DNA of 64,000 nt, taken from positions 1 through 64,000 of the IMG/VR virus record IMGVR_UViG_3300017919_000016; one strand, 5' to 3'. Numbering within the stretch: position 1 is the first letter of the stretch; every line of letters starts with the position of its first letter. The notes under the pieces were generated by a model, which was not told the origin of the DNA, did no database searches, and was given only the letters and a program-made list of their open reading frames with translations. The position numbers and the translations under genes are program-made. The stretch comes from a virus. Its lineage: Duplodnaviria; Caudoviricetes. Below, in pieces: positions 4,348 through 42,220 of this stretch.

Positions 4348-4447
4348 AGAAAAAACTCCTCTCTTTTCGGTGATATACCTAGCTACTAGGTATGTTCACT
4401 CTGTACAGGATATAATGCAAGTACTTTATCCTGATTGAGGGAGTTTT
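4348..4447 (-). promoter_or_regulatory. LSR-C leader: promoter-like TTGCAT-N17-GAACAT inside an anti-SD fold-back
   Basis: Minus-strand AAAACTCCCTC (4437-4447) is complementary to SD GAGAGGAGTTTT (4352-4363); equivalent leaders precede all four C genes. Confidence 0.6.
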
Positions 4448-4510
4448 CATCTTTCTATGTTAAACACCTACAGTATTAAGGCGTTTGTTTTCATGATTTG
4501 GCTCGGCTGC

Positions 4511-5759: not shown

Positions 5760-5777
5760 CCTCGAATCTAAAAGGAT
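5758..5777. other. Putative recombination junction J1 (CG-cct-CGAATCTA-aaa-GGAT)
   Basis: Coincides with loss of LSR-B homology; same spacing as J2 and J3. Confidence 0.7.
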
Positions 5778-6370
5778 AAAAAGGAAACCCAATACACAGA
5801 AAAATGTCAAGAAATACTCTGTTTTGACCAGTAATTCTAGGATTTCGAAGTCTATAACGCAAAAAAAAGCCCACCACATTGTGATGAGCTGTAAAATTGA
5901 TCTATATATACGCTCTCAGAGCGATTTATACTTATCTGAATGAATCTTGGTTCATCTGAAATATGCTGAGTCTAATATACGACGTCTCATTATTTAATGC
6001 AAAACCATGAAAAGTCCACGCCTGAACTATACTATACTTCACTGGCAGATCGTTGCTTTTCAATTCTAATAAAACGAGTTTCTTCTATTATATATGTATT
6101 TATTCTGGCGGCTCTCATCCTAAACGATAATCTGTCCCGAGACATGAATTTTTGAAGGGTCACTGAAAAAACGACGCTTCAGTTTGCCCTGTAACGGATT
6201 TTAATTGATTTTATGACCCGTAGTTCCACCCATGGGCTAATTCCCTGAAATTGGCCACAAAAGCGATTTAGTCATTTGGGGCTTTAAAAAGCAAATAACC
6301 CACCAATATTCAGTCTAAGTTCGGTACTTTCCGAGCCTAGATGCCTTCATGGTGGGTTTCTTCATTTATA
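5760..6370. other. Conserved non-coding element-end module, copy 1
   Basis: Shares AGCCCA..TGAGCT hairpin (5868-5890), CGCTCTCAGAGCGATTT, CGTCTCATTA, CGCTTCAGTTTG.CCTGT.ACGG, GACCCGTAGTTC and long hairpin 6297-6358 with 43495-44173; partly shared with 13079-13543. Confidence 0.8.
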
Positions 6371-7330
6371 TTATCTAGTTTTCCATAATGCCATTGGGTG
6401 ATTTCTAATTCGTTCAATAATCTTCGCATCTTCAAAGAGTAGTTCTGGAACGTATTCTCCGCCTTCAAACTTATTCAGGAATTCCTTTTCTTCCTTCGTC
6501 AAAACCATCAGATCAGAAATGTACTCTTTAACAAGTTTCTTAGCCGACTCCAATTCAAAATCATCTTTTGTTTTAATGACAGGATTGAGATCTGTCTTAA
6601 TCTTCCTCTTAGTAATTGAGTCAATGCCTTTGGTATCAAAGGTCTTGTTTATACTGTTTTTATCTCTCGCTGATATGGCTGCATAGAATACAACGCACTT
6701 TCTCAGCATTTCCTCTTCCGATTCATCAAAGAGACCATAGTGAATCATATTTCTTGAATCATACAAATCCCTGGCTGCAGCTCTGCTTAGTAGCGCATTC
6801 ATCTTACTTCCGTATATCTCAAGTGGAGCTAGAGACTTCACCTTATACTCACTGGAAAAATGTTCAGTTATAATCGGTCTTTCTTCCGCTTCGAGAACGT
6901 GGGACCGTAATGAGTAATTGACTTCAATCTTGATATTATCCTTATTCCCGCTGGCTCCTATGTAGTCATAGACCCATGAGTCCAAGCTATGAGGATTCTT
7001 CGTCTTGGGATTTTTTGAATAACCCTGGGACACCATATAGCGATCAATAGTACTGTTAATGACCTCTCTACTTTCAAGCATTTCTTCTTTACTGTTGGTG
7101 ATTAAATAATCCAAATCTATATCTACAGAAAGACGTGGCAAGTTGAAAATCGTAAGATTAATTGCTGTGCCACCTTTTAATGCAAGACTATCTTTAAGAA
7201 TTGGATTTGTATTTAAATACTCCAGAATATCTGCTAGCCTCGTTACCTTTTCTAATGTATCCCTCACAAATCCTAATTCTTCAGCTTTTTTCCCTAAATA
7301 TATAATGTCGTAATTAGACAAGTATATCAC
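6371..7330 (-). CDS. abiEii: AbiEii/AbiGii-family nucleotidyltransferase toxin (type IV TA / abortive infection)
   Basis: LKGGTAINL..PRLSVDIDL nucleotidyltransferase motif and K..ALLSR..ARDLYD motif; overlaps the upstream antitoxin. Confidence 0.88.
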   Translation of the reverse strand: MIYLSNYDIIYLGKKAEELGFVRDTLEKVTRLADILEYLNTNPILKDSLALKGGTAINLTIFNLPRLSVDIDLDYLITNSKEEMLESREVINSTIDRYMVSQGYSKNPKTKNPHSLDSWVYDYIGASGNKDNIKIEVNYSLRSHVLEAEERPIITEHFSSEYKVKSLAPLEIYGSKMNALLSRAAARDLYDSRNMIHYGLFDESEEEMLRKCVVFYAAISARDKNSINKTFDTKGIDSITKRKIKTDLNPVIKTKDDFELESAKKLVKEYISDLMVLTKEEKEFLNKFEGGEYVPELLFEDAKIIERIRNHPMALWKTR

Positions 7331-8081
7331 CTCCTTGATCCGTTATTTCAAATAGCCCTTCCGGTACCATCAGTTCCCATTCACTGTTATAGAAGCTATC
7401 GTCCTTTGCTTCACTCACAAGGTACCGTCTGCTTTTTCCTATTTTACCTTTGCAATATTCTATGAACTCCTTCGATACCTGCATCTCTTTTCGATAATGA
7501 TCAAGGAGATATCCTACCCGTTGATATAGGCCCTGGGTATTATATATATCAAGGTATCGCTTCAGTTTCTTTTCATCCAAATACTGGATTCCTTCCAAGC
7601 AGTTCAACAATTCTTCAAACCCACCTATTTTATTGAAATCCCTTATGCTGTCAACAACTGTCCGTTCCATATCAGTTATTCTAACCCCGGTGGTGTTCTT
7701 TGCTTCAAAAACACCCTCACTCATCCTTGATGCAACATATTTATAAGTTACATGATCATATTCAAAATGATTGAACTTTGTTTCAGATGAAACATACACC
7801 TCATAGAACACTTGATTCGCCAATCCATAATATTCAAAAGCACTGTGATGAGAGATATATGCAGTGTCAGTTATAGCGCAAGCGATTTGATAACGAGTTG
7901 CCACAAGCTGCCCTGTTGTCGGGTTGACTACAGAGTATATGTTCTTTCGTATCTTTTTGACCAGATCCTTTTTCATTAAACGGTCCAGCTGGGAATAAGC
8001 TGTCTTTTCATTACCTACAAGATTCTTTACATCATCGATTGTAAAAACCGGATACTTCGCCAGTTCAGTTAACACATCCAC
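7314..8081 (-). CDS. abiEi: AbiEi-family antitoxin / transcriptional regulator
   Basis: N-terminal wHTH, YISHHSAFEYYGL and TDMERTVVD motifs; paired with AbiEii. Confidence 0.85.
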   Translation of the reverse strand: MDVLTELAKYPVFTIDDVKNLVGNEKTAYSQLDRLMKKDLVKKIRKNIYSVVNPTTGQLVATRYQIACAITDTAYISHHSAFEYYGLANQVFYEVYVSSETKFNHFEYDHVTYKYVASRMSEGVFEAKNTTGVRITDMERTVVDSIRDFNKIGGFEELLNCLEGIQYLDEKKLKRYLDIYNTQGLYQRVGYLLDHYRKEMQVSKEFIEYCKGKIGKSRRYLVSEAKDDSFYNSEWELMVPEGLFEITDQGGDILV

Positions 8082-8096
8082 TTATCTCACCTCTCT

Positions 8097-8399
8097 TTTT
8101 AATTTTGGCATGATTTTCTTCGCATTTAAAGAATAACGTTCCATTTTTAAAATTATTATAGCCGCTTTACTTTAGTGCTATTCATCTTTTTTTAATTTTA
8201 GCACGTTATTCTTCATAAGTAAAGAAAATCGTTCCATTTTTAAAAATAAACTGGATGGCCTTTGACTTTTTTAAGCATAAAAACAAACCCACCAAGTGGC
8301 TTGATCATTATAATCAGGCTACTCAGTGGGTTTCTTTGTGCGTTTTTAATTTTGTCATGATTTTCTTCATATTTTAAGAATAACGTTCCACTTTTAAAA
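8097..8399. repeat. Three ~56-bp imperfect palindromic repeats (about 8097-8152, 8189-8245, 8343-8399); probable AbiEi operators
   Basis: Consensus TTTTAATTTTG.CATGATTTTCTT-N8-AAGAATAACGTTCCATTTTTAAAA, upstream of abiEi. Confidence 0.75.
8285..8333 (-). terminator. Hairpin/terminator downstream of LSR-C
   Basis: AAACCCAC...GTGGGTTT stem followed by a T-tract on the minus strand; near-identical to 46490-46538. Confidence 0.7.
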
Positions 8400-8407
8400 A
8401 TGCATAC

Positions 8408-11400
8408 CTACTTTTTTACCGAATAATATTTCTGCAGCCTACTTGTTGGCTTATCCGGTATTGTTTCCTTAATAATTCCTTTTTCTAAAAGTGGCTTCAC
8501 GATAAACTTCTTAAAATTAGGATTTGTCAAATACCTTGGAAGATACTCACGCATTTCTGTTATTGTCTTCGGCTCTTCACAATATTTTAGTAAAGCCTTC
8601 ACTTCAGGCCCCTTTAAAAACTCTTTCTTTTCCAATTGCGTCTTTGCTTTTTTTCTACGCCTCTCCTGTTCTTGAAAGTCTTTATAGTTTATTGGTGCCT
8701 TCCACTCAAAACCAGAATGGAACAGATAAATAATCTGACCATCTTCTAGAATGGTCCCTTTTTCTATAAATTTTTCAAAAATTTCTCTTTTAAAATCAGG
8801 TGAGCTTTTGTAATATCCTAAATCATCATTCCCTTTATTTTTATAGGCTTCAAGATTCTTTCTAAGTTCTTCAATTTCTTTTGCTACTTCTTCCAGTTGT
8901 TCTTCACGAGCCGTATAACCTAGTAGTTTCTCTCTTATATCCATAATCTCATCAGTCAAATAATCAATAAGCTTTGCATCTTTACCTGCTTTCCCCAGCT
9001 CATCCTCTACAGCTTTGTATAACTGTTGATTTAACGCTTCTTTCTTCTGCTCTAGCTGTTCTCTTTGTATTTCTTCTTCTGGTGTAATCTTTAAAGCCTC
9101 CATAAATAAATCCAAGTACTCATCAAATGCAGGATTAAATTTTATATCCATTAGGACTTGAGAGAAGTTTTCTTCTACATAGTTTTGATTCAAATGAATA
9201 GAACCACAATGGCCTTTTAACCCCTTATTACACCGCCACCATCTCTTTTCATAACTCTTCATTTGTCTGTTAATTCCTCTTACATAGCCGACGACGGTTC
9301 CACATTCACCACAATATAGTTTCTTAGTAAAGGCATCATTCTTTTCCTTGTCCACTGGATATTTTTGAAAATTTTCTTTTCTGCTTTTTTCATTTTCTTC
9401 TAACATAGTTTGAACTCTTTTCCACTGCTCCCCATTAATAATTCCTTTATGATGACCTTCAATGAAATACATGGGCAGTTCTCCTGTGTTCTTCACCCGA
9501 TCGCTGGTTAAACTAAAGCCTGAATGAAATCTTTGATATATATAGTTTCCTCTGTAAATCTCAGAGCTTAATATCCTCCTAATGGTGCTCACCTGCCACA
9601 TCTTTTGTCCACCTGGTGTGGGAATAGACTCTTCTGTAAGCGTATTAGCTATCTCTCTCATGTTTTTTCCTTTTTCATAGTCATCATAGATCAGCTTCAC
9701 TACTTTTGCTTCTTCATCGTTTATTACCCATTCTTTATTTTTATCGTACTCATAACCGTAGCCTTGAACCGCAGGTCTTACAATACCTCTTTGGGCCAAA
9801 CTTTTTCTACCCCAGGCAATAGCTTCACCAATATTGACACTTTCCTCCTGTCCCAGTGCTGATAACAGATTAATCAAGACATTGCTTTTTTCAGAAAGAC
9901 TCAAAATATTTTCACGCTCGAACCACACTTCGACCTTTGGATCTAGACTTTTCAACATGTTTAAGTAGGTTAATGTATCGACAGTATTTCTAGCAAATCT
10001 AGAAATTGATTTTGTAATAATCAAGTCCACTTTTCCCTCTTTACAATCTTCCATCAGGCGCTTGAACTCATGCCTACCTTCAGTCGTTCTCCCGCTTTTT
10101 CCGTCATCTATATAGATATCAGCTAAGATATACCGTGGATCCTTGAGGATAAGGTACAGATAATATGAATATTGAGTTTTGATACTTGTTTTTTGCTGTT
10201 CCAGTTCTGTTGAAACTCGTACATATGCAGCTACTTTTAATTTCTTTTCTCTTACCACAGGTACACTCGTCTGCATGATCACAGAATTACTAAGTTGTTT
10301 TTGTATATTTTTAACCATCAAATTAGGCTCAAGTTTTCTTTCTGCTATCATCTTTCTGTCCTCCTCACCTACAGTATTTAAATCACCCCCTTTCTCCGAG
10401 GCGATTTGGATGTTTGTCATCAATTCAAAATTAGTGGCTTTTTGAACCACTAAATCCCCATTTGGATGCAACTCTGATAACGACTCTTCTATGTTTGGTT
10501 TTATGGGTATGCAGTTACCTATTTCTGTCTCTTTACCATCAATCCAATAAATTTTATAATCTTCTTTTGAGTAAATGACCATGGAGAGAATCCACGCCCG
10601 TAAGTATTCAATAGTGGCTTTCCCTTCAAATTCTTCAAATGTTTTAATATTCTCAAGCCACTTTATGGAATCAAGACGATACTTCCTATCATCTTCTATT
10701 TCTACTAGCCGGTTCTCAAACTTATCATAATCCCTTTCCATTTGAATGATATCATCATCTGTAAATTGAATATCTTTCAACCTTTTAGCCAATTGAATCT
10801 GTGTCAAGGCCTTAAGGCGATGAAACTCAAAGTAGTCATTCTTATTTATTCTAATCAACATTCTTCTAAGCATTTTAATCAATTTTGGATCTTGAGTATC
10901 AAAGCGTACTCTAAAAGCTTTTAGCATTATTTCAAGCATCAAGTCTTCCCGTATAGTCGGTGAGCTGCAGAGGTTTTTGTTTGTTATTGCCGAGACGCAC
11001 CTGAAATACTCCCATGGTTTATTTCTATTTCTTCTAAAATTCTGACCGCAGTTGCCACAGTGAATCCGCCTTGATAACGGATTGGGTCTAATTTGTTGAG
11101 GTTTAGTTTCCCTTTTGTTCTTGCTTCTCTCTTCTTGTACCCGGTCAAAGACTTCCTGACTTATAATCGCTGGATGGTGGTTCTCAATTAAATATTGATC
11201 CCGTATCCCTTCTGAAGACCGTCTTTTGTTGCTCATCAAATCTCTTGTAAGTTTCCTGGTCTTTGCGTTTCCTGTATAGGCAATGTTTGATAAGATTGAT
11301 GCTATCGTCTTCGGTCCCCACAGTTCCTTCCCAAAGTAGGTCCTGACTCCTCTAATGGTTAATTCACCTGCAATGGCATTATTACTCATACCATCAAGAT

Positions 11401-12055
11401 GCATTTGATAAATCTGTCTAACAACTTGTGCTTGCTCTTCATTGATTGTAATGACGGTCTCATTACCAACTTTTGTTTTATCATAGCCGTATGTGTGTCC
11501 GATATTAACCTTGCCTTTCATCATTCGTTTTTCATGTCCCCACTCTATCGCCTGGGAAGTTGCCTCAATCTCCCCTTGAGCAATGCTGGCATAGGTTTTT
11601 AGAAGATAGGCTGTTTCACTCCTAGTGCTCGTAATATTTTCCGCTTCAAAATATACCGCTACGTTTATTTCTTTTAATCGTTCAATGACTTCAATAAGCT
11701 CTTTCGTGTTTCTTGAAAACCGGGATACATTTTTGACTAAGATTAGGTCAATTCTATGCTCTTCACAGTGTCTGAGCATCCGAGTGAAGCCTCGTCTTAA
11801 TGATGCTTTTCTCCCGGTAACCAGATTATCAAAATAGATACCAACAAAGGTCCAGTTGTCCCTACTATTAATCACATGGGTATAGTGACTTACTTGGCTT
11901 TCCAATGAGTGGGACAGTCCCAGTGAATCAAGACTCACTCTACAATAGGCGGCTACCTTGATTCCCTCTCGCTTACTGTGAAGTGGACTGTCCTCTATCT
12001 TTTCTAAAGGATCCCATAATTTATTGATCCATAAGCTTTTATCTATTTGGTCCAT
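8408..12055 (-). CDS. LSR-C: tandem double large serine recombinase with C-terminal winged helix
   Basis: AAYCRVS and AAYVRVS units, two zinc ribbons; start placed at ATG 12055 after SD AAAGGAG. Confidence 0.92.
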   Translation of the reverse strand: MDQIDKSLWINKLWDPLEKIEDSPLHSKREGIKVAAYCRVSLDSLGLSHSLESQVSHYTHVINSRDNWTFVGIYFDNLVTGRKASLRRGFTRMLRHCEEHRIDLILVKNVSRFSRNTKELIEVIERLKEINVAVYFEAENITSTRSETAYLLKTYASIAQGEIEATSQAIEWGHEKRMMKGKVNIGHTYGYDKTKVGNETVITINEEQAQVVRQIYQMHLDGMSNNAIAGELTIRGVRTYFGKELWGPKTIASILSNIAYTGNAKTRKLTRDLMSNKRRSSEGIRDQYLIENHHPAIISQEVFDRVQEERSKNKRETKPQQIRPNPLSRRIHCGNCGQNFRRNRNKPWEYFRCVSAITNKNLCSSPTIREDLMLEIMLKAFRVRFDTQDPKLIKMLRRMLIRINKNDYFEFHRLKALTQIQLAKRLKDIQFTDDDIIQMERDYDKFENRLVEIEDDRKYRLDSIKWLENIKTFEEFEGKATIEYLRAWILSMVIYSKEDYKIYWIDGKETEIGNCIPIKPNIEESLSELHPNGDLVVQKATNFELMTNIQIASEKGGDLNTVGEEDRKMIAERKLEPNLMVKNIQKQLSNSVIMQTSVPVVREKKLKVAAYVRVSTELEQQKTSIKTQYSYYLYLILKDPRYILADIYIDDGKSGRTTEGRHEFKRLMEDCKEGKVDLIITKSISRFARNTVDTLTYLNMLKSLDPKVEVWFERENILSLSEKSNVLINLLSALGQEESVNIGEAIAWGRKSLAQRGIVRPAVQGYGYEYDKNKEWVINDEEAKVVKLIYDDYEKGKNMREIANTLTEESIPTPGGQKMWQVSTIRRILSSEIYRGNYIYQRFHSGFSLTSDRVKNTGELPMYFIEGHHKGIINGEQWKRVQTMLEENEKSRKENFQKYPVDKEKNDAFTKKLYCGECGTVVGYVRGINRQMKSYEKRWWRCNKGLKGHCGSIHLNQNYVEENFSQVLMDIKFNPAFDEYLDLFMEALKITPEEEIQREQLEQKKEALNQQLYKAVEDELGKAGKDAKLIDYLTDEIMDIREKLLGYTAREEQLEEVAKEIEELRKNLEAYKNKGNDDLGYYKSSPDFKREIFEKFIEKGTILEDGQIIYLFHSGFEWKAPINYKDFQEQERRRKKAKTQLEKKEFLKGPEVKALLKYCEEPKTITEMREYLPRYLTNPNFKKFIVKPLLEKGIIKETIPDKPTSRLQKYYSVKK

Positions 12056-12152
12056 TAAAAAAAACTCCTTTCCTCTGAAAGATTGCGCTTGCTTGTATGT
12101 TTGCATTGGTGTCAAACTATTGCAAGTACAATCTCCATACGGTAAAGGAGTA
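12056..12152 (-). promoter_or_regulatory. LSR-C leader (TTGCAA-N17-AAACAT; anti-SD ACTCCTTT)
   Basis: Minus-strand ACTCCTTT can pair with SD AAAGGAGT; conserved GTACTTGCA. Confidence 0.55.
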
Positions 12153-12185
12153 TTTTATTTAATTGGATAAATTCTTTAAAAATCG

Positions 12186-13078
12186 CTAGTCGTTCTTCCC
12201 ACGTCTCCAGCCTTGAGCCATTCTTATGACTCCACATTTAAAGATAAACTCAATCTCATAGTCCTTGTGGAGAATACCTCTTTCAACAAGCTTTTTAAAT
12301 TCTGCTGCATCAAAGGTTTCAAAGCTACTTTGGCTTTCAAGATATGTTATTAAAGCTTCTAGGTTCTGCCTCATGTAGATTTCTTCGTCCTGGCTTTTGA
12401 CAAGCGCTTCATGTTCCTGCTGGTAAATTTGTGATTCATAAATCATATTTCTAAGGGTTGCATCATAGATGGGGTCATTAGTGACACTTTCTCTCATGGC
12501 CATTTCACTTATACGATCATTGATTCGATCGATGATTTCTTCAAGCTCTTTAAGCCTTTCTTTTTCATCGTATGTTAAGCTCACATCCTCAATGGCCGCT
12601 TCACCCTCAGCTCTTATGAGATCAATCTCCTCAGTCATTTTCAGAAGCATTTCATTGTAGGCTGCTTCAATAACCTCTTCCCAAACATACTTTGAATGGC
12701 AGTCAAAGTCTGCTTCTACTTTTTGAGCCGCCAGTCTACAGTGCCAAACGGTAAACTTGTAGGGCTTCCCATCTCGCCTTGATGTGATGCGCCTTCTATG
12801 AACCGGCATGCCACACTCCCCACAATAGAGCATATTCGAAAATGGTGCCTTTCCGCTATAGGTTCTATGGTATTTCCCGTCAGGATCATGCTTCATTTTT
12901 CTTCTTCTTTCCAGTTCCTTTTGTACATAATTCCATTCCTCTTCAGAGATGATTGCAGGGTGATTATTCCGGATAAAGTACTGCGGCTTGTGGTTCTTAT
13001 TTCTGACCCGTTTGTGAGTTAAGGGGTCCAGGGTTACTGACTTCTGACATAACGCATGTCCACAAAATTTCTCATTCG
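12186..13078 (-). pseudogene. 5'-truncated LSR-B (zinc ribbon and coiled-coil half only)
   Basis: Homologous to LSR-B from NEK.G..L.QK.VT onward; upstream part of the track ORF is AT-rich end-module DNA. Confidence 0.88.
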
Positions 13079-13096
13079 AAGTGATACGATTTGGAT
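13077..13096. other. Putative recombination junction J2 (CG-aag-TGATACGA-ttt-GGAT)
   Basis: At the LSR-B truncation point; same spacing as J1 and J3. Confidence 0.7.
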
Positions 13097-13543
13097 AAAA
13101 GTACATTTTATAGTGGTTAATAATGTATTTATCTTGACTTAAATACAATATGTAGTTTTATCATTGTGCTGTAAGGATAAAAAAATAAGCCCATTTCGGT
13201 AAAGAAATGAGCTCTCTTGAAAAATTCCTTCTATTATATTGTTACTCAGTTGATTAGTTCGAAAGTTAGAAAATCTAGTCTAGTAATTGCCATTTTTGAT
13301 GATGCTCAAAAAAAATCAAGCCTTCAGATTGGCCTGTGTCGGATTTTTATTTTGTTTAGGACCTGTTGCTTAACTTCAAGCTAAATAGCCTGAAATCGAA
13401 AAACTGCCAAGATTCCTTCAAAAAAAAAACAAAAAACCACCAAGATGCAAGTCTAAGTTCGGAACTGATGCCGAGCTAAGATGCCATCTTGGTGGTTCAT
13501 CTGTGATCACAAAAAAATCAAGCCCATCACAATGTGATAGGCT
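13079..13543. other. Conserved non-coding element-end module, copy 2 (shorter, more diverged)
   Basis: Hairpins 13188-13213, 13435-13497 and 13521-13543; CTTCAGATTGGCCTGTGTCGG motif. Confidence 0.75.
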
Positions 13544-13734
13544 CATTTTTCTTTTGTACTGTTTCGAGATAGCATTTGTTTTACTTTATGCTCCCCACGC
13601 CTCGTATATTTAAGCGATACCAAGCTTCTATCTATTTTTATACTCTTTCTTGGTATGGAAATAATCCTCTCGAAAGACTCCACGGCCTTCTTGGTATTCA
13701 AAGTGAAATCCTTATTAAAAGATGATGTAGGCAT
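13543..13734 (-). CDS. Small hypothetical protein (63 aa), paralogue of 1-174
   Basis: MPTSSFNKDFTLNTKKAVESFERI; SD AAAGGGGTG. Confidence 0.6.
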   Translation of the reverse strand: MPTSSFNKDFTLNTKKAVESFERIISIPRKSIKIDRSLVSLKYTRRGEHKVKQMLSRNSTKEK

Positions 13735-13822
13735 TCTGATCACCCCTTTGCTATTATGATTTGCTTTCCTCACTACATTCACATTATCATATGCAGTGGG
13801 ACAATTCAAAATTTCTTAAGTT

Positions 13823-16800
13823 TCAACTTTCCGTATAGTACTTCTGATCATGGCTGTAGATAAACTCAGGAATCGTACGCTTTAGTCTCCCCATCTCAAC
13901 CAGTGGATTGATTATCGTTGTCCTGAAATGTTCAATTGTCAAAGTGTCCCCCATGAATGCTAACATCTCATGGCTAGTTCTAGGTGTTCTACAATACTTC
14001 ATAAGCTTTTTAATTTCAGGCCCATTTAAAAAATCTAGTCTCTTCAAGAAGTTCTCAAGCTTTCTTCGCTTGGTGATGAGCTTTTGATAATTCTCATAGG
14101 TTATTGGTGCGGACCATTCAAGTCCGACTTTCAGCGTGAATGTAATTGTCCCATCTCTATAGATTATGCCAGATTCTATTAATCTTTCAAATAAGTCTTT
14201 GTTAAAGCTCGCTTCTTCTACCTTAAGACCCGTCTCTAAAACCTTTGACGGAAGTAGTGATTTTCCGTACCTGGTTTGATCGAACCCTTGAAAATTCGCT
14301 CTTCTCTTCTTTCCTAAAAGATCCTGAAGTTTGCAGCTATTAAAGAACCACTCCATTTCTGATTGTAGATGTAGTTGCCGCTCTCTTTTCTCTGTATAGA
14401 ATTTCAGTTGTTCCTGTATTGCCACAATCTTGCTCGTAAGCATATCAATCCGCTGGGAGTCTCTGCCCTTTTTGTTAAGCTCGTCATCTACCGCTTCGTA
14501 AAGTTTTTGATACAGTGCATCCATTTCATCGATTAGTTGTTTTTCCATGCTCAGTTCTTCTTCACTTATCTCAAGCTCATCTATTTTCTTTTCATAGTAT
14601 GTTTTGAATTCTGGATTTGATACCATTTCAACCAGCAGATGCTGAAAATTGATTTCCAGGTATTCTTGATTGAACTGTTTAGCATCACATACCTGAAGCA
14701 TATTCTGCAGGCCATAGCCGCATCGCCAAAATAATGTCGCGCTTGATTTTTCTTTGGTCCTTTTTCTCTCAATTTCACCTGTTTCATCGTCACGCTTTTG
14801 AACTCGTTTTTTATTCATATATCGTCCAAAACCTACTGTGCTACCGCACTCTCCACACTTGAATTTATCGGTAAACACTTCATTTTTTACTTCTTTTTTT
14901 TCAAAACTCAGATGAACTCTTTTCATGCTCTTTTGTCGATCAGCTCTCATTTGCTGCACTTCATCCCATACGTCCTTCTCAATAATAGCTGGGTGATGAT
15001 CTTCAATATGAATCATGGGAATTTCTCCCCGGTTTGGTACAAGTGGTTGCTTGCGTTCTGGATTTTTATATTTTTGATTGTGAATGTAATCCCCTTTGTA
15101 AACGACATTCACCAGGATATTTTGAATGGAAGAGTTGCTCCAAAGTCCTGAACCACTTGGCGGAACGATTCTCTCGTCATTAAGACTTTTATAGATATCT
15201 GTTCGTCTCACCCCATTCAAGTAATCCGTATAAATGCGCCTAACAATGGCAGCTTCCTCTTCTTTGATGACCCACTCTTTCTTCTCGTTGTATTCATACC
15301 CATAGTTAAGCCTTCTTGGCCTGACTATCCCTCTACTTGCTAGCGCTCGTTTACCCCAGGAGATGGAACTTCCTATATTTCTACTCTCTTGCTGCGCTAA
15401 GGCTCCCATCAGGCTGACCATCAGCTCACTGGTATCGTCTTCTGTTGAAATATTTTCTTTTTCGAAAAATATATAGGTCGGTGACTCTAACTCTCTCAAA
15501 ACCCTTACATACTTAATCGCATCCAAAGTATTCCGACTAAACCGTGACAATGATTTTGTCAGGATCAAATCTATTTTTCCTGCTTTGCAGTCACTGATCA
15601 TTCTATTGAAGCCTTCTCGGTGCTTTGTTGAAGTTCCAGTGATACCTTCATCTACATAGATGCCAGCAAACTGATACTTAGGATTTTTAAGGATGGAGTA
15701 GGTATAAAAAGCGATTTGGGTTTTTAGACTTGTTTCTTGCTCTTCTTTATCCGTTGACACTCGAACGTAGGCAGCGACCTTCAGCTTCTTTTTAGTCTCA
15801 ATCTTTAGGTGATTATTGTCTTTTACGTTTTTATAGATGCGACTCATCAACTGCATATGTTGCTGATGATCGATCTGTGTTACTTGAGGTAATGCCACAT
15901 CGGTTTCCTCCTCTCTGTCATATTTTTCGATGACTTCATCAAGATGAAGATGCTCTGTTTTTTCTAAAGGATTAATTTTAGTATCTGATTCAAATGACGC
16001 TCTTGATATTAAGTTTTCTGTAGTTAGTGCTTTAGTATCTCGTTCATTGTCATGTATTGCTTCAGACCCAGAAATTAGTTCCACTTTTTTCTCTCTTGAT
16101 TTTCGGAAATCCTCAGCTTTACTTTTGCATAGCTCAACATCACCCATTTGAGTTTCACTTCCATTAATCCAGTGAACAATAAAATCTTCATATGAATAAA
16201 TAGTCACAGAAACAATCCAGGCTCTCATGAGCTCCAATGTTAACTCTGTTAAGAACGCCACCGAATCCTTTCCTTCTCTAAGCCAGTCAAGAGCCATGTC
16301 CCGGTACTTCCTATCATCCTCTATCTGATTGATTTTCTCTTCAAATTCTCCATATTGCTTACGCATATCCTCTACATCTTCTATAGTAAATCGGGACCCT
16401 ACCAAATGTTCAGCAATCTCAATTTCTGTTAAATATTTAAGCCGATGAAACTCAAAGTGGTCATTCTTATTGACCCTCTCTAATATTTTCTCCAGCTCAT
16501 TGACAGTTCTATCACTTCCAAAATCAAACCATTCTTCAAAACCGCTTTGAAGGATATCGCGCATAACTTCTTCTCTGATATAATTTGTAGGGCACAGCTC
16601 CTTATGCCCCACACGTAACTTGCATCCCCAATACGCTGCTTTCACTCGGTCTGTTGTTCGATAATGGATATTTCCACAGTAGCCACAAATAATTCGTCCT
16701 GCAAAAGGGCTGATTGTCTTTTTTGAAGCTGTCGTTTTATTTGGTCTGTTTTTCTCAATGAGTTTTTGCACTTTCTCGAAGGTTTTCAAATCAATAATGG

Positions 16801-17752
16801 GTGGGTTTGCATTTTCAATTAGAATCTTATCTCTCATACCCTCTGATGACCTAACCCTGTTTGTCATAAGATCCTTATTTGTCGTTCTACCAATGTAATT
16901 CCCTGTGTAAATCGGCAGGGTTAAAATCTGTTTAACTGTTGAAATATTCCATGTATCCAGTCCTCTAGGAGTCTTGTTGCTGCTAAAGGTCAGGGCTTTC
17001 ATGATTTCTGTCTGAGATTTGCCGTTGAGGTATTCTCTGTAAATCCACCTAACAACTTTTGCTTCTTCTTTGATAATTCTAAGCTTCGAGCGCCCTGAAC
17101 CTTTAACCAGTTCATACCCATAGGTCTTCTGGAAATAAGGCCTCCCACTTAGTAGTCTTTGTTCCACACCCCACTTTCCTAGTTCTGACATAGCTTCTAT
17201 CTCAGCTTGCGATAGGCTTCCGTAGGTTGATAATAAAAATGCATTATAATCAATGGACGTGTCAATCCGCTCTTTCTCGAAATACACCCCTACTCCGTGT
17301 TCTTTTAACTCTTCGACAGCTTCTAGCAACTCCTTCGTATTCCTGGAAAACCGCTGCACATTTTTTGTAATGATTAGATCCAGCTTGCCTTCTTCAGCAT
17401 GACGGAGCATTCTTCTGAAACTTCGTCTATCCTTTATTGTCCTACCAGAAATATTATCATCAAAGTAGATACCGACAAATTTCCAATTAGGTTTACTGCG
17501 AATTAGTTCTGTATAATGACTCATCTGATTTTGAAGCGATCGACTTTTTTTATTTGGAGTAGGACTCACTCTACAATAAGCCGCTACCCTTACTTCATCA
17601 TCCGTTTTCTCAAGCGGACTTTTCCTCTTTTCATCTAAAGGGTTCCATAATGTTTGAACCCACTGCATCTTATCATTGGGATTCATCTTTTCAATTTCAT
17701 CCAATTGATAACCGGTTGTTTTATTTAAAGTATCATCTGATCTTTTGCCCAT
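13823..17752 (-). CDS. LSR-C: tandem double large serine recombinase with C-terminal winged helix
   Basis: Close paralogue of 409-4347; two catalytic units. Confidence 0.92.
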   Translation of the reverse strand: MGKRSDDTLNKTTGYQLDEIEKMNPNDKMQWVQTLWNPLDEKRKSPLEKTDDEVRVAAYCRVSPTPNKKSRSLQNQMSHYTELIRSKPNWKFVGIYFDDNISGRTIKDRRSFRRMLRHAEEGKLDLIITKNVQRFSRNTKELLEAVEELKEHGVGVYFEKERIDTSIDYNAFLLSTYGSLSQAEIEAMSELGKWGVEQRLLSGRPYFQKTYGYELVKGSGRSKLRIIKEEAKVVRWIYREYLNGKSQTEIMKALTFSSNKTPRGLDTWNISTVKQILTLPIYTGNYIGRTTNKDLMTNRVRSSEGMRDKILIENANPPIIDLKTFEKVQKLIEKNRPNKTTASKKTISPFAGRIICGYCGNIHYRTTDRVKAAYWGCKLRVGHKELCPTNYIREEVMRDILQSGFEEWFDFGSDRTVNELEKILERVNKNDHFEFHRLKYLTEIEIAEHLVGSRFTIEDVEDMRKQYGEFEEKINQIEDDRKYRDMALDWLREGKDSVAFLTELTLELMRAWIVSVTIYSYEDFIVHWINGSETQMGDVELCKSKAEDFRKSREKKVELISGSEAIHDNERDTKALTTENLISRASFESDTKINPLEKTEHLHLDEVIEKYDREEETDVALPQVTQIDHQQHMQLMSRIYKNVKDNNHLKIETKKKLKVAAYVRVSTDKEEQETSLKTQIAFYTYSILKNPKYQFAGIYVDEGITGTSTKHREGFNRMISDCKAGKIDLILTKSLSRFSRNTLDAIKYVRVLRELESPTYIFFEKENISTEDDTSELMVSLMGALAQQESRNIGSSISWGKRALASRGIVRPRRLNYGYEYNEKKEWVIKEEEAAIVRRIYTDYLNGVRRTDIYKSLNDERIVPPSGSGLWSNSSIQNILVNVVYKGDYIHNQKYKNPERKQPLVPNRGEIPMIHIEDHHPAIIEKDVWDEVQQMRADRQKSMKRVHLSFEKKEVKNEVFTDKFKCGECGSTVGFGRYMNKKRVQKRDDETGEIERKRTKEKSSATLFWRCGYGLQNMLQVCDAKQFNQEYLEINFQHLLVEMVSNPEFKTYYEKKIDELEISEEELSMEKQLIDEMDALYQKLYEAVDDELNKKGRDSQRIDMLTSKIVAIQEQLKFYTEKRERQLHLQSEMEWFFNSCKLQDLLGKKRRANFQGFDQTRYGKSLLPSKVLETGLKVEEASFNKDLFERLIESGIIYRDGTITFTLKVGLEWSAPITYENYQKLITKRRKLENFLKRLDFLNGPEIKKLMKYCRTPRTSHEMLAFMGDTLTIEHFRTTIINPLVEMGRLKRTIPEFIYSHDQKYYTES

Positions 17753-17852
17753 AGAAAAAACTCCTCTCTTTGTAGTGGCATACTCAGTTACTAGGTATGT
17801 TCACTCTGTACAGGATATAATGCAAGTACTATATCCTAATTGAGGGAGTTTT
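17753..17852 (-). promoter_or_regulatory. LSR-C leader (promoter-like motif plus anti-SD)
   Basis: Near-identical to 4348-4447. Confidence 0.6.
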
Positions 17853-17907
17853 TATCTTTCTATGAAAAGCCTCTGTTATTTAGACGCTTATTTTCAGTAT
17901 TTGTTAT

Positions 17908-19575
17908 CTACAAGTATTCTTTACGATCAGCGCTTATGCTCCTTTTGATACCGCATTTAAAATGGAAATCGACTTGGTGGTTGTCATGCACGATACCTTT
18001 TTCAATGGTCTTTACAAAAATATCTTCTCGAAAGCTATCGTCATCGCTTAAGTCACTCAAACTCTCAATGAACTCTTCTAACTGTTTCTTTATAAAAATA
18101 CTTTCAGTTTCCATCTTGCTTAAGTTTTCATACTCAAGCTGAATGATTTCTTGTTCGTAAATCATGTGTCGCATAGTTGCGTCATATACAGGATCACTTG
18201 TCGCTGATTCTCTAGCTGCCAAATCACTGATTCGATTTGTAATATGTTCAAGTTTCGTTTCAAGTTCGATTAGTTTTTCTTTCTCAGATTCTGTAAGTGC
18301 ATAGTCCTCACTGGCAAGTCGCGCTTCTCGAATCACTTCATCACGATCTTCATTCATCTCATGGAGAATCTTCATAAATGCTTTTTCTAATACCTCTTCC
18401 CATACATAACTCGCATTACATTTAATGCCTTTGTCTATATCTCTGTGGGCTGCCACTCTGCAGTGCCATGTTGTGAAGTGGTACTTTTCTCCATTTTTAG
18501 ATGAAGTCATTCGCCTGCGTGTTACAGGTCTGCCACATTTCCCGCAAAACAACATATTGGAGAATACGGATTTCCCGCTATATGTCATCTTATATTTTCT
18601 CTCGGGATTTCTTAGCATATCGTTTCTTCTTATGAGTTCCTTTTGTACCTTATCCCAATCTTCTTTTGAGATAATTGCAGGATGGTGATTTTGAATGTAA
18701 TATTTCGGTTTATGGTCTTTGTTTGGAACTCTTTTATGGCTTAAAAAATCTATTGTTACCGTCTTTTGAGCCACACAGTCCCCTGTATATTTTTCTTGGA
18801 TTAATATTTTTCGAATAGAATCACTGGTCCAGGTTTTCTTACCTCTTGCTGTTAAAACACCATCTTTCATCAACCCCTTAGCAATCCTTGCTGTCCCCTT
18901 CCCTTCTAAAAATTCTCTAAATATTCGCCTTACAACTTTTGCTTCTTTTTCTAGAATAACAATCTTCCCATCTTCATCCGTATCGTATCCTAGAAAGTAT
19001 GTGGTTGGAATATGGGGTTTCCCTTGAGAGAAACGCTTCGTCACACCCCAGGTAGCATTCATGCTCAATGATTTTGATTCTTCCTGGGCTAGGGAACTTA
19101 AAATCGTCAAAAATAGTTCTGATTTCGAATCAAGTGTGTCCAAGTTTTCCTTCTCAAAAAATACGCCGACCTGGGGATCTAAGTTCTTCAATAACCTTAC
19201 ATAACTTAAACAATCAAGGGTGTTTCTAGCGAATCGACTGATGGATTTTGTTAGAATGTAGTCTATTTTTCCTGCTTTGGCATCTTCAATCATTTCAAGA
19301 AATCCCGTTCTGTTCTTTGTATTTGTACCCGTAATCCCTTCATCCGTGTAGATCTTATAAAGCTCCCACGCTGGGTTTTTATTTATATAGTCCGTATAAT
19401 ATGAAACCTGAAGTTCATAAGAGGACGCTTGGTGTTCGAGCAAAGTCGATACACGCGCATAGGCCGCAATCCTTTTTTTGCGTCCATCATGATGTTCATC
19501 ACTTCTTCCCGTCCTGCTGACTACTGGAATAATGCGGACTTTTGGGTTCATGCTTGTTGATAGATTCGTTTGCAT
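17908..19575 (-). CDS. LSR-B: large serine recombinase
   Basis: AAYARVS, TKSISRFARN, recombinase domain, CGKCG zinc ribbon, coiled coil. Confidence 0.93.
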   Translation of the reverse strand: MQTNLSTSMNPKVRIIPVVSRTGRSDEHHDGRKKRIAAYARVSTLLEHQASSYELQVSYYTDYINKNPAWELYKIYTDEGITGTNTKNRTGFLEMIEDAKAGKIDYILTKSISRFARNTLDCLSYVRLLKNLDPQVGVFFEKENLDTLDSKSELFLTILSSLAQEESKSLSMNATWGVTKRFSQGKPHIPTTYFLGYDTDEDGKIVILEKEAKVVRRIFREFLEGKGTARIAKGLMKDGVLTARGKKTWTSDSIRKILIQEKYTGDCVAQKTVTIDFLSHKRVPNKDHKPKYYIQNHHPAIISKEDWDKVQKELIRRNDMLRNPERKYKMTYSGKSVFSNMLFCGKCGRPVTRRRMTSSKNGEKYHFTTWHCRVAAHRDIDKGIKCNASYVWEEVLEKAFMKILHEMNEDRDEVIREARLASEDYALTESEKEKLIELETKLEHITNRISDLAARESATSDPVYDATMRHMIYEQEIIQLEYENLSKMETESIFIKKQLEEFIESLSDLSDDDSFREDIFVKTIEKGIVHDNHQVDFHFKCGIKRSISADRKEYL

Positions 19576-19577
19576 AA

Positions 19578-21218
19578 TCAGCCTTCTCCTTTCTCAATTT
19601 TCACTTCTTTTAGATCTCCATTCGCCCAATATAAAAGCAGCGTTCCTTTGTCTGTATAAGTCATTCTGATAAACCATGCTCTTAGAAACCTAGTATCCTC
19701 AGATAATTTATTCATCCCTTGCACAATTTTGGTTCCGCTTTTTATTTTTTCTAATGACTTTATAGCTTCTTCCCTGTACTCAGCATCCTTATCGATAAAC
19801 TCCCATAGATGCCTTTTAGATTCTAATTGTTTCTCAAGTTGAGTTCGTTGTTCTTTGAATGTTGACTCATCACGAAGTTCCATAATCGCTCTATTTTCAT
19901 CCACCAAAGCTTTTTCTAAAGACAGTCTCAGCCAACTTTGCTCTGACTCTCGATTTAACTCAATATTCTTAAGCTCTTTGATTAAATGTATGACAAGTTT
20001 TTTGTTTACATTGGTGCCACCATCCAGATACTTCCTAGTGAACTCTCTTTTTAGAGTCCTCACAATATCTAGTTCATCAATCGCTTCCATTTCGCAAAGT
20101 AATTTACTCTTAAGACTGCTCGAACATCTCCATAATACTTTCCTTCTGCCCGCATATCGATGGTAGTTCTTCCCGCAGCACCCACACTTGATTCTGCTAG
20201 TAAACTCATTTACGCTCTTTTTCTTTCTATCGTATGTGACTGATTTTTTCTCAAGAATTCTCTGCACTCTGTCAAAGATTTTCCTGTCAACAATTGGTTC
20301 ATGATGATTGCTTATATAATACTGCGGTCTTTCTCCATTGTTTATTTTGGTTTGATGTGTTAGATAATCTTTTGTGTAAGTCTTTTGGCAAAGAGCATCA
20401 CCAACATAACGTTCGTTGCTCAAAATACTTTTGATATTTGAATCTTTCCAGTCGATACGACCATTTGGTTTTTTATAACCTTTACTTATAAATTTTCTGG
20501 CTATATTGACCAGGCTGTAGCCTTCCAAATACAAGTCGTAAGTCTCCCTCACAATCTTTGCTTCCTCTAAATCAATGGTCCAGGGAACACCGTTCACTTT
20601 TTTATAACCTAGAATTCTTGTGAATAAAGGCTTTCCACTTGAAAACCTTTTTGTATGAGCCCAGGTTAGATTTTCTGAAATCATTCTGCTTTCTTCTTGC
20701 GCGACTACCGATAACAGGGTCAGAATAAATTCACTCTCCATACTTCCTGTATCAACAGATTCCTTCTCAAAGATGACCCTAATTCCATTTTCTTTGAGCA
20801 CTCTAATTGCTTCTAATGTGTCCATTACATTTCTCGCAAATCTCGAGATAGACTTACATAAAATTAAATCAATATTTCCTTCCAGGGCATGGCGCATCAT
20901 CTTATTGAATCCCGCCCTATGGGACCTTTTAGTTCCAGACTTGCCCCTGTCAGAGTAGATGCCCACAAACATCCAGTCAGAGTTATTTCTAATGTAGTTT
21001 GTGTAATGAATTGTTTGATTTTCAAGGGAGTTCATTTGAATTTCTTCTTCTGTACTCACTCGGCAATACGCACAAACTCTCAGTCTTTTAGGTTCTTCCT
21101 TAATATTTGATGCTGTTGATGCTCCTTGAGTTTTCATTCCAATTTCAATGACTTGTCTCTCTTGGGATTGGAAATCAATGCTGTCATAAAATCCACTTTC
21201 ATACAACGATCCAGTCAT
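19578..21218 (-). CDS. LSR-A: large serine recombinase
   Basis: CAYCRVS, CKSISRFARN, CGCCG; start placed at ATG 21218 after SD AAGGAGGG. Confidence 0.92.
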   Translation of the reverse strand: MTGSLYESGFYDSIDFQSQERQVIEIGMKTQGASTASNIKEEPKRLRVCAYCRVSTEEEIQMNSLENQTIHYTNYIRNNSDWMFVGIYSDRGKSGTKRSHRAGFNKMMRHALEGNIDLILCKSISRFARNVMDTLEAIRVLKENGIRVIFEKESVDTGSMESEFILTLLSVVAQEESRMISENLTWAHTKRFSSGKPLFTRILGYKKVNGVPWTIDLEEAKIVRETYDLYLEGYSLVNIARKFISKGYKKPNGRIDWKDSNIKSILSNERYVGDALCQKTYTKDYLTHQTKINNGERPQYYISNHHEPIVDRKIFDRVQRILEKKSVTYDRKKKSVNEFTSRIKCGCCGKNYHRYAGRRKVLWRCSSSLKSKLLCEMEAIDELDIVRTLKREFTRKYLDGGTNVNKKLVIHLIKELKNIELNRESEQSWLRLSLEKALVDENRAIMELRDESTFKEQRTQLEKQLESKRHLWEFIDKDAEYREEAIKSLEKIKSGTKIVQGMNKLSEDTRFLRAWFIRMTYTDKGTLLLYWANGDLKEVKIEKGEG

Positions 21219-21293
21219 ATTCGCCCTCCTTCCTTTATCCTTTTTCAAGCTGACGGCCTTTTTGTTTATCAATCAAACTCTTTAAAATATAAA

Positions 21294-21395: not shown

Positions 21396-21430
21396 AAAAA
21401 TAAGCCGATGCTATGAGAATAACACCGGCT
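21396..21430 (-). terminator. Intrinsic terminator after the amidase
   Basis: AGCCGGTG..CATCGGCT stem followed by TATTTTT; conserved in E2. Confidence 0.75.
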
Positions 21431-22496: not shown

Positions 22497-23135
22497 CTAT
22501 ATGTTCTTTAATAAATCTCCGCTATCCTCCAAAACCGCTCTTAGAAATTCATGAATGGAGAAATCAGGATTCGAGTAAATTGTTGTATTTCCAATCTTTG
22601 TACTGTCAGCTTTCACCTTGTTCTTCCGAATCAACTCTGCTCTTCTAATTGCTGATTTTACATCATCTAAAGTTATTTGATGTAGGATCCTTTTTATAAC
22701 GTCTTCATTCTTTATATCGTCTGTGGGCTTCAACCCAAAGATTCTACGAACATCTGAGATATAAGCATCATTTCTTGAAACACTCTTATTGTAGTCCTCT
22801 TTATGGAGGATCAACCATAAATCAAAATTCACACTGCTGTATGCATGATAAATGTGTCTACCTTCTTTTCGTTTTGAAGGTTTAAGCTTTTTGTTCAGAG
22901 AATCACAGATTTCAATATTTCTCTTGAACTCCACATCGTTATGGTCAAAATCAAAAACCGCAGCACTATCATAGTTCTCATATCTTTTTTCAAGACGATG
23001 TGGCAAATCTTCAAAGGTATTAAACTTAAACACTTTCCTTGGAAAGTCCTTAATCAGCTTAGCCACATGATTTAAATACATTGTTTCCTGCTGCCCATCA
23101 CAAATGCATAGATATGCTTTTCTATAGGTTGCCAT
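22497..23135 (-). CDS. RloB / AbiLii-like protein
   Basis: CICDG..E..Y, AVFDFD and S.NFDLWLILH motifs resemble RloB; coupled to the upstream ATPase. Confidence 0.8.
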   Translation of the reverse strand: MATYRKAYLCICDGQQETMYLNHVAKLIKDFPRKVFKFNTFEDLPHRLEKRYENYDSAAVFDFDHNDVEFKRNIEICDSLNKKLKPSKRKEGRHIYHAYSSVNFDLWLILHKEDYNKSVSRNDAYISDVRRIFGLKPTDDIKNEDVIKRILHQITLDDVKSAIRRAELIRKNKVKADSTKIGNTTIYSNPDFSIHEFLRAVLEDSGDLLKNI

Positions 23136-24441
23136 CTTCATCCTCCTCACTGCTGTTTTGATTTAACAGCTTGGAAAAGTCGATGAAGGGAAGCGCTCCG
23201 TAGTTCCCTTTGAAGTAATTGATTAGATAATTATGGTCGTTCCTTACTTCCTCTGCGCCAAAATCAGCTAAAGAATAGATCACGCTCTCATAAGAATCCG
23301 TATCTTTTTCTACGAACCTGATCTGATCTCTTCTGAATATTTTATTGTTTAGATAAATCGGATTATGTGTCGTAAAAATAAGCTGTGCGCCAGCTTTATT
23401 TAAATCACTGTCATTAAAAAGCGCCAGGATTCCTTTAATCAGTTCTGGGTGTATTGCTGCGTCGAACTCATCAAGAATAAATACCCCACCTGCTTTAAAA
23501 AGTTCCTCAAAAGGAATCGCAAAATCAACAAGTTTAAGTGTTCCTCTTGATTCCATCAGCTCTGCCGGTATCACGATATTTTCATCGTGGTATTTATAGA
23601 TAGAAACTAGCTCCATACTGGATGACTCTTTATCTTCTGATTTGTTTGATTTAAAGGCTATACCCTGGGGACCAAAATCCGCATTTTTAACAAATCCATC
23701 AAGAATCTTGTTCCATGCAAAAAAATCTTTCTTGGGGCTGTCTTCCAATGAAAATGTTAGGTTCGTTTTCTTCAGTGTGAAATCACTCACCACAACAAGC
23801 TTTTCTTTAAAGAAGTCTAGCACCATATCTGCCAATTCATTGCTGATTGTACTTTTAAATGCCCTTGATAAGAACAGCTCAGTCTCATCAATGTTCTCAT
23901 TGATTTTCTTCTCAAACTGTTTTAGCAGCTTCTCATCAAATTCAATGATTGATAGTGCCTTTTTCTCTTTATTGATCTGAATCTTATCTTTTTCTCTTGT
24001 ATATATATTTGTTTTTTGGTCAGACTTATCAATGTAATTCAGAAATTCAGATACTATACTTCTGGTTTCTTTTTTGAAAGTGCTTACTTGAGCTTCAAAA
24101 CCAAACTCTAACCGTTTTCCTCCATAAATAAAATCAATCTCAAAGCTCAAAGGCTTCTCAGATTCCTGATAGGCAAATGGGTAAAGTTCCAGGTTCTTTA
24201 GGTTTGGTATATTAGCCTCAAGGGACCCTGAAAGAACAATGTCTTTCATCACTGCCAGAGACATGATGATATTGGATTTCCCACTGGCGTTGGCTCCATA
24301 TATTACAGCTGAAGGAATAATTCTCAAGTCATATTCTCTTATGAGATTATCATTTAGTGTGGTTTGTCTGCCAGCTATCATCGAAAGACTGGTCATTTCT
24401 TTAAATGACCTGAAATTTGAAAATCTATAATCAATTAACAT
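23122..24441 (-). CDS. AAA_21 ABC-type ATPase (RloA / AbiLi-like)
   Basis: NFRSF, Walker A YGANASGKS, ESRGT signature, LDEFDAAIHP, FTTH. Confidence 0.88.
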   Translation of the reverse strand: MLIDYRFSNFRSFKEMTSLSMIAGRQTTLNDNLIREYDLRIIPSAVIYGANASGKSNIIMSLAVMKDIVLSGSLEANIPNLKNLELYPFAYQESEKPLSFEIDFIYGGKRLEFGFEAQVSTFKKETRSIVSEFLNYIDKSDQKTNIYTREKDKIQINKEKKALSIIEFDEKLLKQFEKKINENIDETELFLSRAFKSTISNELADMVLDFFKEKLVVVSDFTLKKTNLTFSLEDSPKKDFFAWNKILDGFVKNADFGPQGIAFKSNKSEDKESSSMELVSIYKYHDENIVIPAELMESRGTLKLVDFAIPFEELFKAGGVFILDEFDAAIHPELIKGILALFNDSDLNKAGAQLIFTTHNPIYLNNKIFRRDQIRFVEKDTDSYESVIYSLADFGAEEVRNDHNYLINYFKGNYGALPFIDFSKLLNQNSSEEDEDGNL

Positions 24442-32036: not shown

Positions 32037-32202
32037 ATCAAGAATCCACCTTTGAGGATAAAATTGTCTTTGTACTTTGAAATCGAAATTCTTTCTAGAA
32101 GCCTTTCCATCATAAAATTCTGAAGCACAGTATTCGCTATCAAATTATTCTCTTTAGCCACATTGTTAATCCAGTCTTTCAATTGTCTAGGACTACCAAC
32201 TT

Positions 32203-41880: not shown

Positions 41881-41941
41881 AACTTTCACCTCCTTCATTT
41901 ACTGCAAAGAAAAAGAGCCATTTTTCAGGCTCCAAATGTTA

Positions 41942-42217: not shown

Positions 42218-42220
42218 GGA

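Follow-up and report, generated by a model that had tools for sequence, protein, structure and literature searches.

The DNA described here is a 64,000-nucleotide stretch (the window) that covers positions 1 to 64,000 of IMG/VR record IMGVR_UViG_3300017919_000016 (Caudoviricetes) and makes up the opening 64 kb of a provirus record of 91,964 bp. Every gene in it lies on the minus strand. Its main feature is a module of large serine recombinase (LSR) genes, A, B and C, in which C encodes two complete recombinases in one chain. The module belongs to a stack of related prophages. E2 is a complete siphophage, whose early genes encode DNA polymerase A, a VapE primase-helicase and an SNF2 helicase and are followed by the terminase, portal, capsid and tail genes, the holin and amidase genes, the A2-B2-Cd module and a set of cargo genes. 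E1 keeps its late half alone, from 43488 down to 13078, and beyond it lie two shorter right-end fragments, b, which carries Cb, and a, which carries Ca. A first-pass annotation had assigned A, B and C to both E1 and E2, and open reading frames (ORFs) and Pfam domains bear this out. The four copies that it counted are four copies of C (1124-1312 residues) and not four whole modules, since A, B and C are complete together in E1 and E2 only, while Ca and Cb each follow a B remnant that is truncated at its N-terminal end. The coordinates are collected in Table 1.

In the E1 module, the open frame of A1 reaches back to a TTG at 21272 (19578-21272, 564 residues), although the ATG at 21218, which is preceded by GGGAGGAGG, is the likelier start. 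A and B each have one set of Resolvase, Recombinase and Zn_ribbon_recom domains in Pfam, and a gap of 155 nt separates B1 from Cc. Across the family, the module sits 0.7-3 kb from the prophage right end. The terminator-like hairpin between the amidase gene and A suggests that A, B and C form a transcription unit of their own.

Table 1. Positions of the recombinase genes, their parts and the adjoining features in the window
Feature	Position	Strand	Remarks
A1, stand-alone LSR	19578-21218	-	546 aa from ATG at 21218; Resolvase, Recombinase, Zn ribbon; A clade, SH-aLRT (Shimodaira-Hasegawa-like approximate likelihood ratio test) 100
B1, stand-alone LSR	17908-19575	-	555 aa; start 2 nt past the stop of A; B clade, support 100
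Cc, fused double LSR (P0001)	13823-17752	-	1309 aa; two Resolvase and two Recombinase domains
Cc unit 1, A-like	16118-17596	-	residues ~53-545; catalytic Ser63, R134/R137
Cc linker	15791-16117	-	residues ~546-654; poorly conserved
Cc internal Shine-Dalgarno (SD)-like GAGGAGG and in-frame GTG (codon 619)	15896-15914	-	35 codons before unit 2, equivalent to the start position of the B gene
Cc unit 2, B-like	14108-15790	-	residues ~655-1215; catalytic Ser666, R737/R740
Cc C-terminal extension	13826-14107	-	Fic-like_C winged-helix match, weak in Cc, above the Pfam cut-off in Cb
Ca, intact fused LSR	409-4347	-	1312 aa; 88% identical to Cc
Cb, intact fused LSR of older element	8408-12115	-	1235 aa
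Cd, fused LSR of E2	46544-49918	-	1124 aa
E2 module	46544-53404	-	A2 51776-53404, B2 50094-51776, Cd 46544-49918
B' remnant	4511-5758	-	truncated at FEKEN motif (~B residue 140); also delimited as 4511-5746
B'' remnant	12186-13148	-	without catalytic domain; begins at unit-profile position 221; up to the E1 right end, 12186-13077
E1 right end	13076-13098	-	half-site TTATCCAAATCGTATCACTTC, then GA; directly adjoins truncated B'' remnant
Element b right end	5757-5779	-	half-site TTATCCTTTTAGATTCGAGGC, then GA; GA = first two bases of the EKEN codons of B'
E2 right end	43487-43514	-	half-site TAATCCTTCTCGTATCATGGC, then GTTTA, then GA; adjoins late-operon leader of E1
Terminator-like hairpin	21403-21430	-	between amidase gene and A
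88-aa ORF	13543-13809	-	just downstream of Cc; counterpart downstream of Ca (5-212)
Long conserved hairpin with U tail	13400-13500	-	prophage right end; copies at 6230-6365 and 44000-44135

All four copies of C have the same double architecture. Pfam finds two Resolvase and two Recombinase domains in each, with E-values from 1e-42 to 1e-65; PF00239 occurs once in A, once in B and twice per C, and PF07508 once per unit. Two matches to Zn_ribbon_recom had also been expected in C. The doubling holds for Resolvase and Recombinase, while PF13408 is detected in A, in B and in at least one unit of each C, the other unit having four Cys that are invariant in the alignment. In blastp comparisons the N-terminal half of every C matches A end to end, with its LRAW...W..G tail included, and the C-terminal half matches B end to end. 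An AlphaFold2 model of Cd (mean predicted local distance difference test score, pLDDT, 77) has two folded LSR units, residues 31-533 and 607-1110, joined by a linker that is modelled as disordered (pLDDT below 50 for residues 536-606). Each unit starts with a catalytic domain, after which come the long helix E, the recombinase domain and the zinc ribbon; further long helices and a small C-terminal sheet complete it. The long helices that follow the two zinc ribbons (residues 392-473 and 972-1065) are paired in the model. The domains, the end-to-end alignments and the model together uphold the earlier view of C as two full LSR units.

The linker is about 110 residues long in Cc and about 70 in Cd. 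All four copies in the window have an SD-like sequence together with an in-frame start codon, ATG or GTG, 32-35 codons ahead of unit 2, at just the point where a B gene starts. Among 22 non-redundant fusion genes with available DNA, 14 have such an internal SD and start, 23-45 codons before unit 2, as against 54 of 985 equal-sized control windows (5.5%). Since this element is present while the linker is otherwise poorly conserved, unit 2 may be made alone as well, and an internal ribosome-binding site and start codon ahead of it would yield an additional free B-like unit. What looks like the leftover SD and start codon of a second gene might also be expected if the fusion were an artefact, either of a sequencing or assembly frameshift or of a missed stop between two genes. 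However, the frame is unbroken in the four divergent copies of the window (31-88% identical) and in more than 40 database sequences from isolates, metagenome-assembled genomes (MAGs) and metagenomes, which makes the probability of an artefact negligible.

The catalytic residues are conserved throughout. The Ser of the YxRxS motif and both Arg residues of the SRFxRN motif do not vary in either unit across alignments of 17 and of 30 fusions, which are only 31-45% identical, and the same motifs are invariant in 10 A proteins, 10 B proteins, 44 N-terminal units (N-units) and 45 C-terminal units (C-units). On these motifs, all four units look catalytically competent. An arrangement in which only one or two of the units are catalytic and the others act as structural or regulatory partners, for example as a built-in recombination directionality factor (RDF), could find a parallel in the engineered integrase-RDF fusions that are reported to work (PMC5737554), and no separate RDF was recognised beside the module. 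It is nevertheless very improbable, since the nucleophilic Ser and the two Arg residues are retained in every one of the four unit types. Non-catalytic paralogues normally lose their catalytic residues.

The four unit types also keep their identity in phylogenies built on the first 430 residues of each unit. The N-units form one clade and the C-units another (support 98-99 for each), and A and B form one clade each (100). A and the N-units are joined at 99, and B and the C-units at 95 in the larger FastTree tree. The first-pass annotation had described unit 1 as A-like and unit 2 as B-like and the recombinase motifs of the window as intact; the blastp halves and the separated-unit trees agree with the former, and the latter extends across the family, to the units listed above. 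The N-unit and C-unit subtrees mirror one another. Together with the grouping of A with the N-units, this makes the duplication of one ancient A-B pair, one copy of which was then fused, once, the simplest history that the trees suggest.

Although the members of each pair evolve together, the two pairs are only loosely coupled. Over the ten complete modules, pairwise identities correlate well between A and B (r 0.85) and between N- and C-units (r 0.80), whereas the correlation of A or B with the N- or C-units is only 0.16-0.42. The modules of loci L081 and L101 illustrate this, with A and B 79-82% identical and C only 33-38% identical. B has the highest mean pairwise identity of the units (61%) and C the lowest (40-41%). 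The weak co-variation implies that C, whether by exchange or by evolving on its own, changes independently of A and B, and the pattern suggests that A with B makes one dimer block and the fused pair another, separable from it, rather than that four units co-adapt tightly.

The fused LSR family is rare. A word-indexed search recovered 31 fusion clusters at 90% identity, and an exhaustive phmmer search of 1.84 billion representative proteins recovered about 22 clusters of full-length two-unit proteins (1066-1346 residues) among 57,617 LSR-like matches. The named sources are Litchfieldia, Proteiniclasticum, Niallia, Robertmurraya and Clostridia MAGs, and the database labels are only "recombinase family protein" or "DNA invertase Pin-like". 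Ten full modules have the order holin-amidase-A-B-C, the two in the window and those of L001, L005, L081, L086, L089, L099, L101 and L102, from Proteiniclasticum, Niallia, Robertmurraya, MAGs and viral contigs; at an eleventh locus (L100) the contig end falls inside C. The phages that carry the modules are siphophages of Bacillota, and the module follows their holin and amidase genes.

C also occurs by itself. Locus L004 has a divergent, intact solo C beside host UDP-glucose dehydrogenase genes and cargo, so that C may be able to act alone. Two C chains, each a single-chain dimer, could then make up the recombinase tetramer, with A and B as accessory or redundant proteins or as leftovers of an older system. 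The survival of an intact C, and not of A or B, in the stacked remnants would agree with this, as would the rapid diversification of C, which is the behaviour expected of a specificity determinant. The position of C nearest the right end, however, explains its survival in the remnants equally, and A and B are under clear purifying selection with active sites intact in every complete phage; C as the sole integrase is therefore improbable. On metagenome contig L087 (1913-9866), two intact fused C genes, of 1281 and 1322 residues, sit next to each other between a truncated B and host genes, which follow at once.

The right ends of the prophages share a half-site. Each truncated LSR remnant, whether in the window or in one of six other genomes, has a related 21-nt motif immediately upstream of it. 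The motif has the pattern TTATCC, 4 nt, a CGTATCA-like core, 1 nt and GGC, and it meets the target DNA at GA. The pattern was derived from those junctions and is thus partly circular, while the breakpoints in the window, locus L086 and the exact searches are independent of the derivation. The homology between the Ca-B' and Cc-B1 repeats ends at 5758 and that between E1 and E2 (41905-43488) ends at 43488; each position is the G of the GA that comes after a half-site, and both breakpoints were located without reference to it. In L086 the motif occurs once, next to what is left of a UDP-glucose dehydrogenase gene, a C-terminal fragment. When viral and metagenome contigs were searched for exact copies of the Cb-lineage half-site TTATCCTTTTAGATTCGAGGC, 14 further loci came up, and GA follows directly in all 14. 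In nine of these, and in the window, L081 and L083, the GA opens the codons for (F)-[E/D]-[K/R]-E (the EKE codons) of an LSR catalytic domain, and the genes that are hit are of several types, B-like genes, the N-unit of a C and unrelated LSRs. In four further loci the sequence beyond the half-site is the same and precedes host DegT/Bac_transf genes, and among the remaining ones one lies inside a Bac_transf-like reading frame and another elsewhere. The identical 21-nt half-site is therefore joined to several different target arms, all of which begin with GA. The shared sequence of the four metagenome contigs was considered as a P' arm because of an inverted TTATCCTTT; this was rejected, since host DegT/Bac_transf genes follow, and the sequence is read as a chromosomal target arm.

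These junctions are read as site-preferring integration with crossover at GA, often into the recombinase genes of resident relatives. The Cb lineage appears to insert repeatedly at the EKE codons of LSR genes of other elements and to leave stacks of truncated recombinase modules. The loose target choice proposed in the first-pass annotation is accordingly borne out as to the number of target arms that meet at GA and not as to looseness, the nine EKE loci among the 14 pointing to a strong preference with some tolerance. Remnant truncation points recur in other lineages, at unit-profile positions 90-91, 101-108, 125, 137-138, 221 and 240-241. A junction between an E1-type end and position 221 of a Cb-type B is seen both in the window and in a Clostridiales MAG (L083), and the difference between the two in the next downstream junction argues for independent events. 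Scans of viral contigs with the E1 and E2 half-site patterns gave no match, and no inverted copy of the half-site was found in the left region of E2 (88.5-92 kb) or in that of the Niallia prophage.

Two further breaks in recombinase genes have other origins. In Robertmurraya andreesenii (L090, G003:C2:9500-28500), a 14-kb element at about 1500-15800 splits a B gene at residues ~140-150, the EKE region used by the phages of the Cb lineage. This split B was considered as an LSR-phage insertion; that was rejected, a tyrosine-integrase satellite being responsible. The element has genes for a tyrosine integrase, a helix-turn-helix repressor, a D5/NrS-1-type primase and a phage capsid protein and looks like a capsid-encoding phage satellite, so that a second, unrelated kind of mobile element also targets this recombinase gene. 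An N-terminal LSR fragment on contig 60 of G004 was likewise rejected because it comes from an unrelated broken LSR.

The order of the stack, E2, E1, b and a, would result from repeated insertion at a preferred site with later loss of the older left parts. Simple nesting predicts that A and N-terminal fragments of B lie upstream, and 100 kb of the Niallia contig contained none. On that contig, the stack borders at its right end on a comM-like fragment, and the left end does not carry the matching piece. Because the missing left parts are not upstream there, they would have been lost later, plausibly through homologous recombination between related phages.

Taken as a whole, the module is best explained as the integration and excision module of a temperate siphophage family of Bacillota, and the full explanation has a probability of about one half. 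A and B would form a heterodimer on one attachment site, as is thought for CcrA and CcrB, and the other would be occupied by C, whose two units would make a heterodimer within one chain. A synapse of this kind would contain four distinct catalytic units, one for each strand to be cut, and would require symmetry of neither site. Integration would be aimed at preferred sequences, with the Cb lineage preferring the EKE codons in the LSR genes of other elements. The strictest form of this explanation is an obligate four-unit integrase in which A and B would pair on one site, the fused A'-B' chain would take the other, and each half-site would be read and cut by its own unit; exchange of C would retarget the phage, and homing into the catalytic-motif codons of a rival's recombinase gene would disable the rival. 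This form is possible and is put forward tentatively.

The four conserved active sites and the evolution in two blocks fit a heteromeric integrase, while the solo C and the exchangeable C fit the alternatives equally well. Several observations weigh against it. Binding among the units and a shared synapse are predictions drawn from the genes. The weak co-variation of C with A and B means that C can be swapped between modules, which would suit independent enzymes too, and intact C genes occur where A and a whole B are missing, namely Ca, Cb and the solo C of L004. No RDF was recognised, although the ORFs beside C, which have no family match, were given no dedicated test. Neither attP, attL nor an empty attB was found, and the asymmetry of the sites and the position of the crossover are deduced from the right junctions only. 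Over 28 pairs, the similarity of half-sites clearly tracks neither A/B (r ~0.25) nor C (r ~-0.1).

Some of the same observations would suit a division of labour, in which A plus B and C are two separate integrases of one phage that serve different sites or reactions. One might act at a chromosomal site and the other at resident LSR genes, or one might integrate and the other excise or resolve multimers. The separability of the A/B and C blocks, most evident between L081 and L101, is what such an arrangement would produce, and half-sites of one type occur at LSR genes as well as at a polysaccharide locus; the LSR triplets of streptococci are equally undissected (PMC4701971). On the other hand, each right end has a single conserved half-site, all three genes are present in the same order in 10 of 10 full modules, and the catalytic residues are kept in all four units over 33-60% divergence. 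Two separate integrases are thus rather unlikely.

The single heteromeric system, if real, would have relatives among known recombinases, and each of these differs from it. SCCmec uses both CcrA and CcrB. As in that system, paralogous LSR genes are adjacent on one mobile element and the element stacks in tandem with relatives at its target, whereas the present module has four units, not two, with two of them fused, is carried by a phage and not by a cassette, and is targeted to recombinase genes of other elements and to polysaccharide loci instead of rlmH. The layout is also similar to that of the LSR triplets of streptococcal integrative and conjugative elements (ICEs), in which co-oriented LSR genes lie at one end of the element and cluster by position, which indicates an ancestral multi-gene module, and in which conserved genes, among them traG of another ICE, are interrupted by insertions that have very short repeats (PMC4701971). 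Insertion into a gene of another element is common to both, but the triplets consist of three separate genes (E, M and I by position) with no fusion and belong to conjugative elements. TndX has a GA core and prefers a conserved domain-coding sequence, Fic (PMC4430133), and in a multi-targeting LSR clade one enzyme has several targets (bioRxiv 10.1101/2021.11.05.467528). The several targets that share a GA core resemble those of the Cb-lineage half-site, although TndX, TnpX and the enzymes of that clade are single proteins that suffice alone. DUF4368, which is typical of the TndX-like clade, was not detected in the four A/B/C tails in a Pfam scan to an E-value of 10.

Relatives among solved structures include the A118 integrase and TnpX-type enzymes. 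Each unit has the domain order of A118/LI integrase (4KIS/6DNW), TP901-1 and TnpX, which is catalytic domain, long helix E, recombinase domain, zinc ribbon and helices that are putatively coiled-coil in the present units; those enzymes, however, are homodimers that act on quasi-palindromic sites with a separate RDF. The engineered integrase-RDF fusions of PMC5737554 are similar in that recombinase parts are linked by a flexible linker, and differ in being man-made. No paper on a natural LSR-LSR fusion came up in full-text searches for LSRs described as fused, tandem or double, in keeping with the earlier suspicion that the fusion might be undescribed. Multi-LSR modules such as CcrAB and the ICE triplets are known, and a natural fused LSR is undescribed in the literature searched. 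The right ends with a conserved half-site followed by GA, the breakpoints of the window on that GA and the repeated insertion at EKE codons of LSR genes are also new.

Serine integrases are valued tools of genome engineering, and since they are homodimers their sites must be nearly symmetric. A true four-unit system would be a natural route to an integrase for fully asymmetric sites, and the module could serve as a template for engineered hetero-specific integrases. Insertion at the EKE codons of recombinase genes of other elements would amount to competition between mobile elements, and would explain the stacks of truncated recombinase modules in several Bacillota genomes.

Two smaller features accompany the right ends. 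Three different prophage right ends have, downstream of C, the long hairpin with a U tail, whose folding z-scores range from -2.3 to -4.2; it may be a terminator or a small RNA, and it has no Rfam family match, the Rfam and tRNA scans being empty. The 88-residue ORF downstream of Cc has no family match either.

The phages also carry varied cargo. The stretch from C to the right end and the lysis region hold defence-like genes that differ among phages (AbiEi/AbiEii, SocA_Panacea, AAA plus S8 peptidase), at 6371-8081 in the window, at 589-2218 and 10926-12407 in L081 and at 14024-17533 in L086. In E1, an AAA_21 ATPase and RloB pair (22497-24441) lies between the tail/holin genes and the amidase gene as a defence-like insertion in the lysis cassette, and is not present in E2. 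The tail region of E1 (29779-32802) includes AbiEi-like (32203-32802) and AbiEii (29779-30480) genes, with an IS256-family (Transposase_mut) gene at 30696-31937 separating them. The early region of E2 (L084/L085, 72.8-88.3 kb of the record) encodes an amidoligase and a gamma-glutamyl cyclotransferase-like protein, a ParB-methylase fusion and a SAM synthetase, and the first late gene of E1 (42622-43452) has an amidoligase PHROG match too. The E2 cargo after Cd (44180-45589) is a protein with Schlafen/AlbA_2, HATPase_c_4 and Fic-like_C domains, apparently split into ORFs of 300 and 158 residues, and its winged-helix end is similar to the C-terminal tail of Cb.

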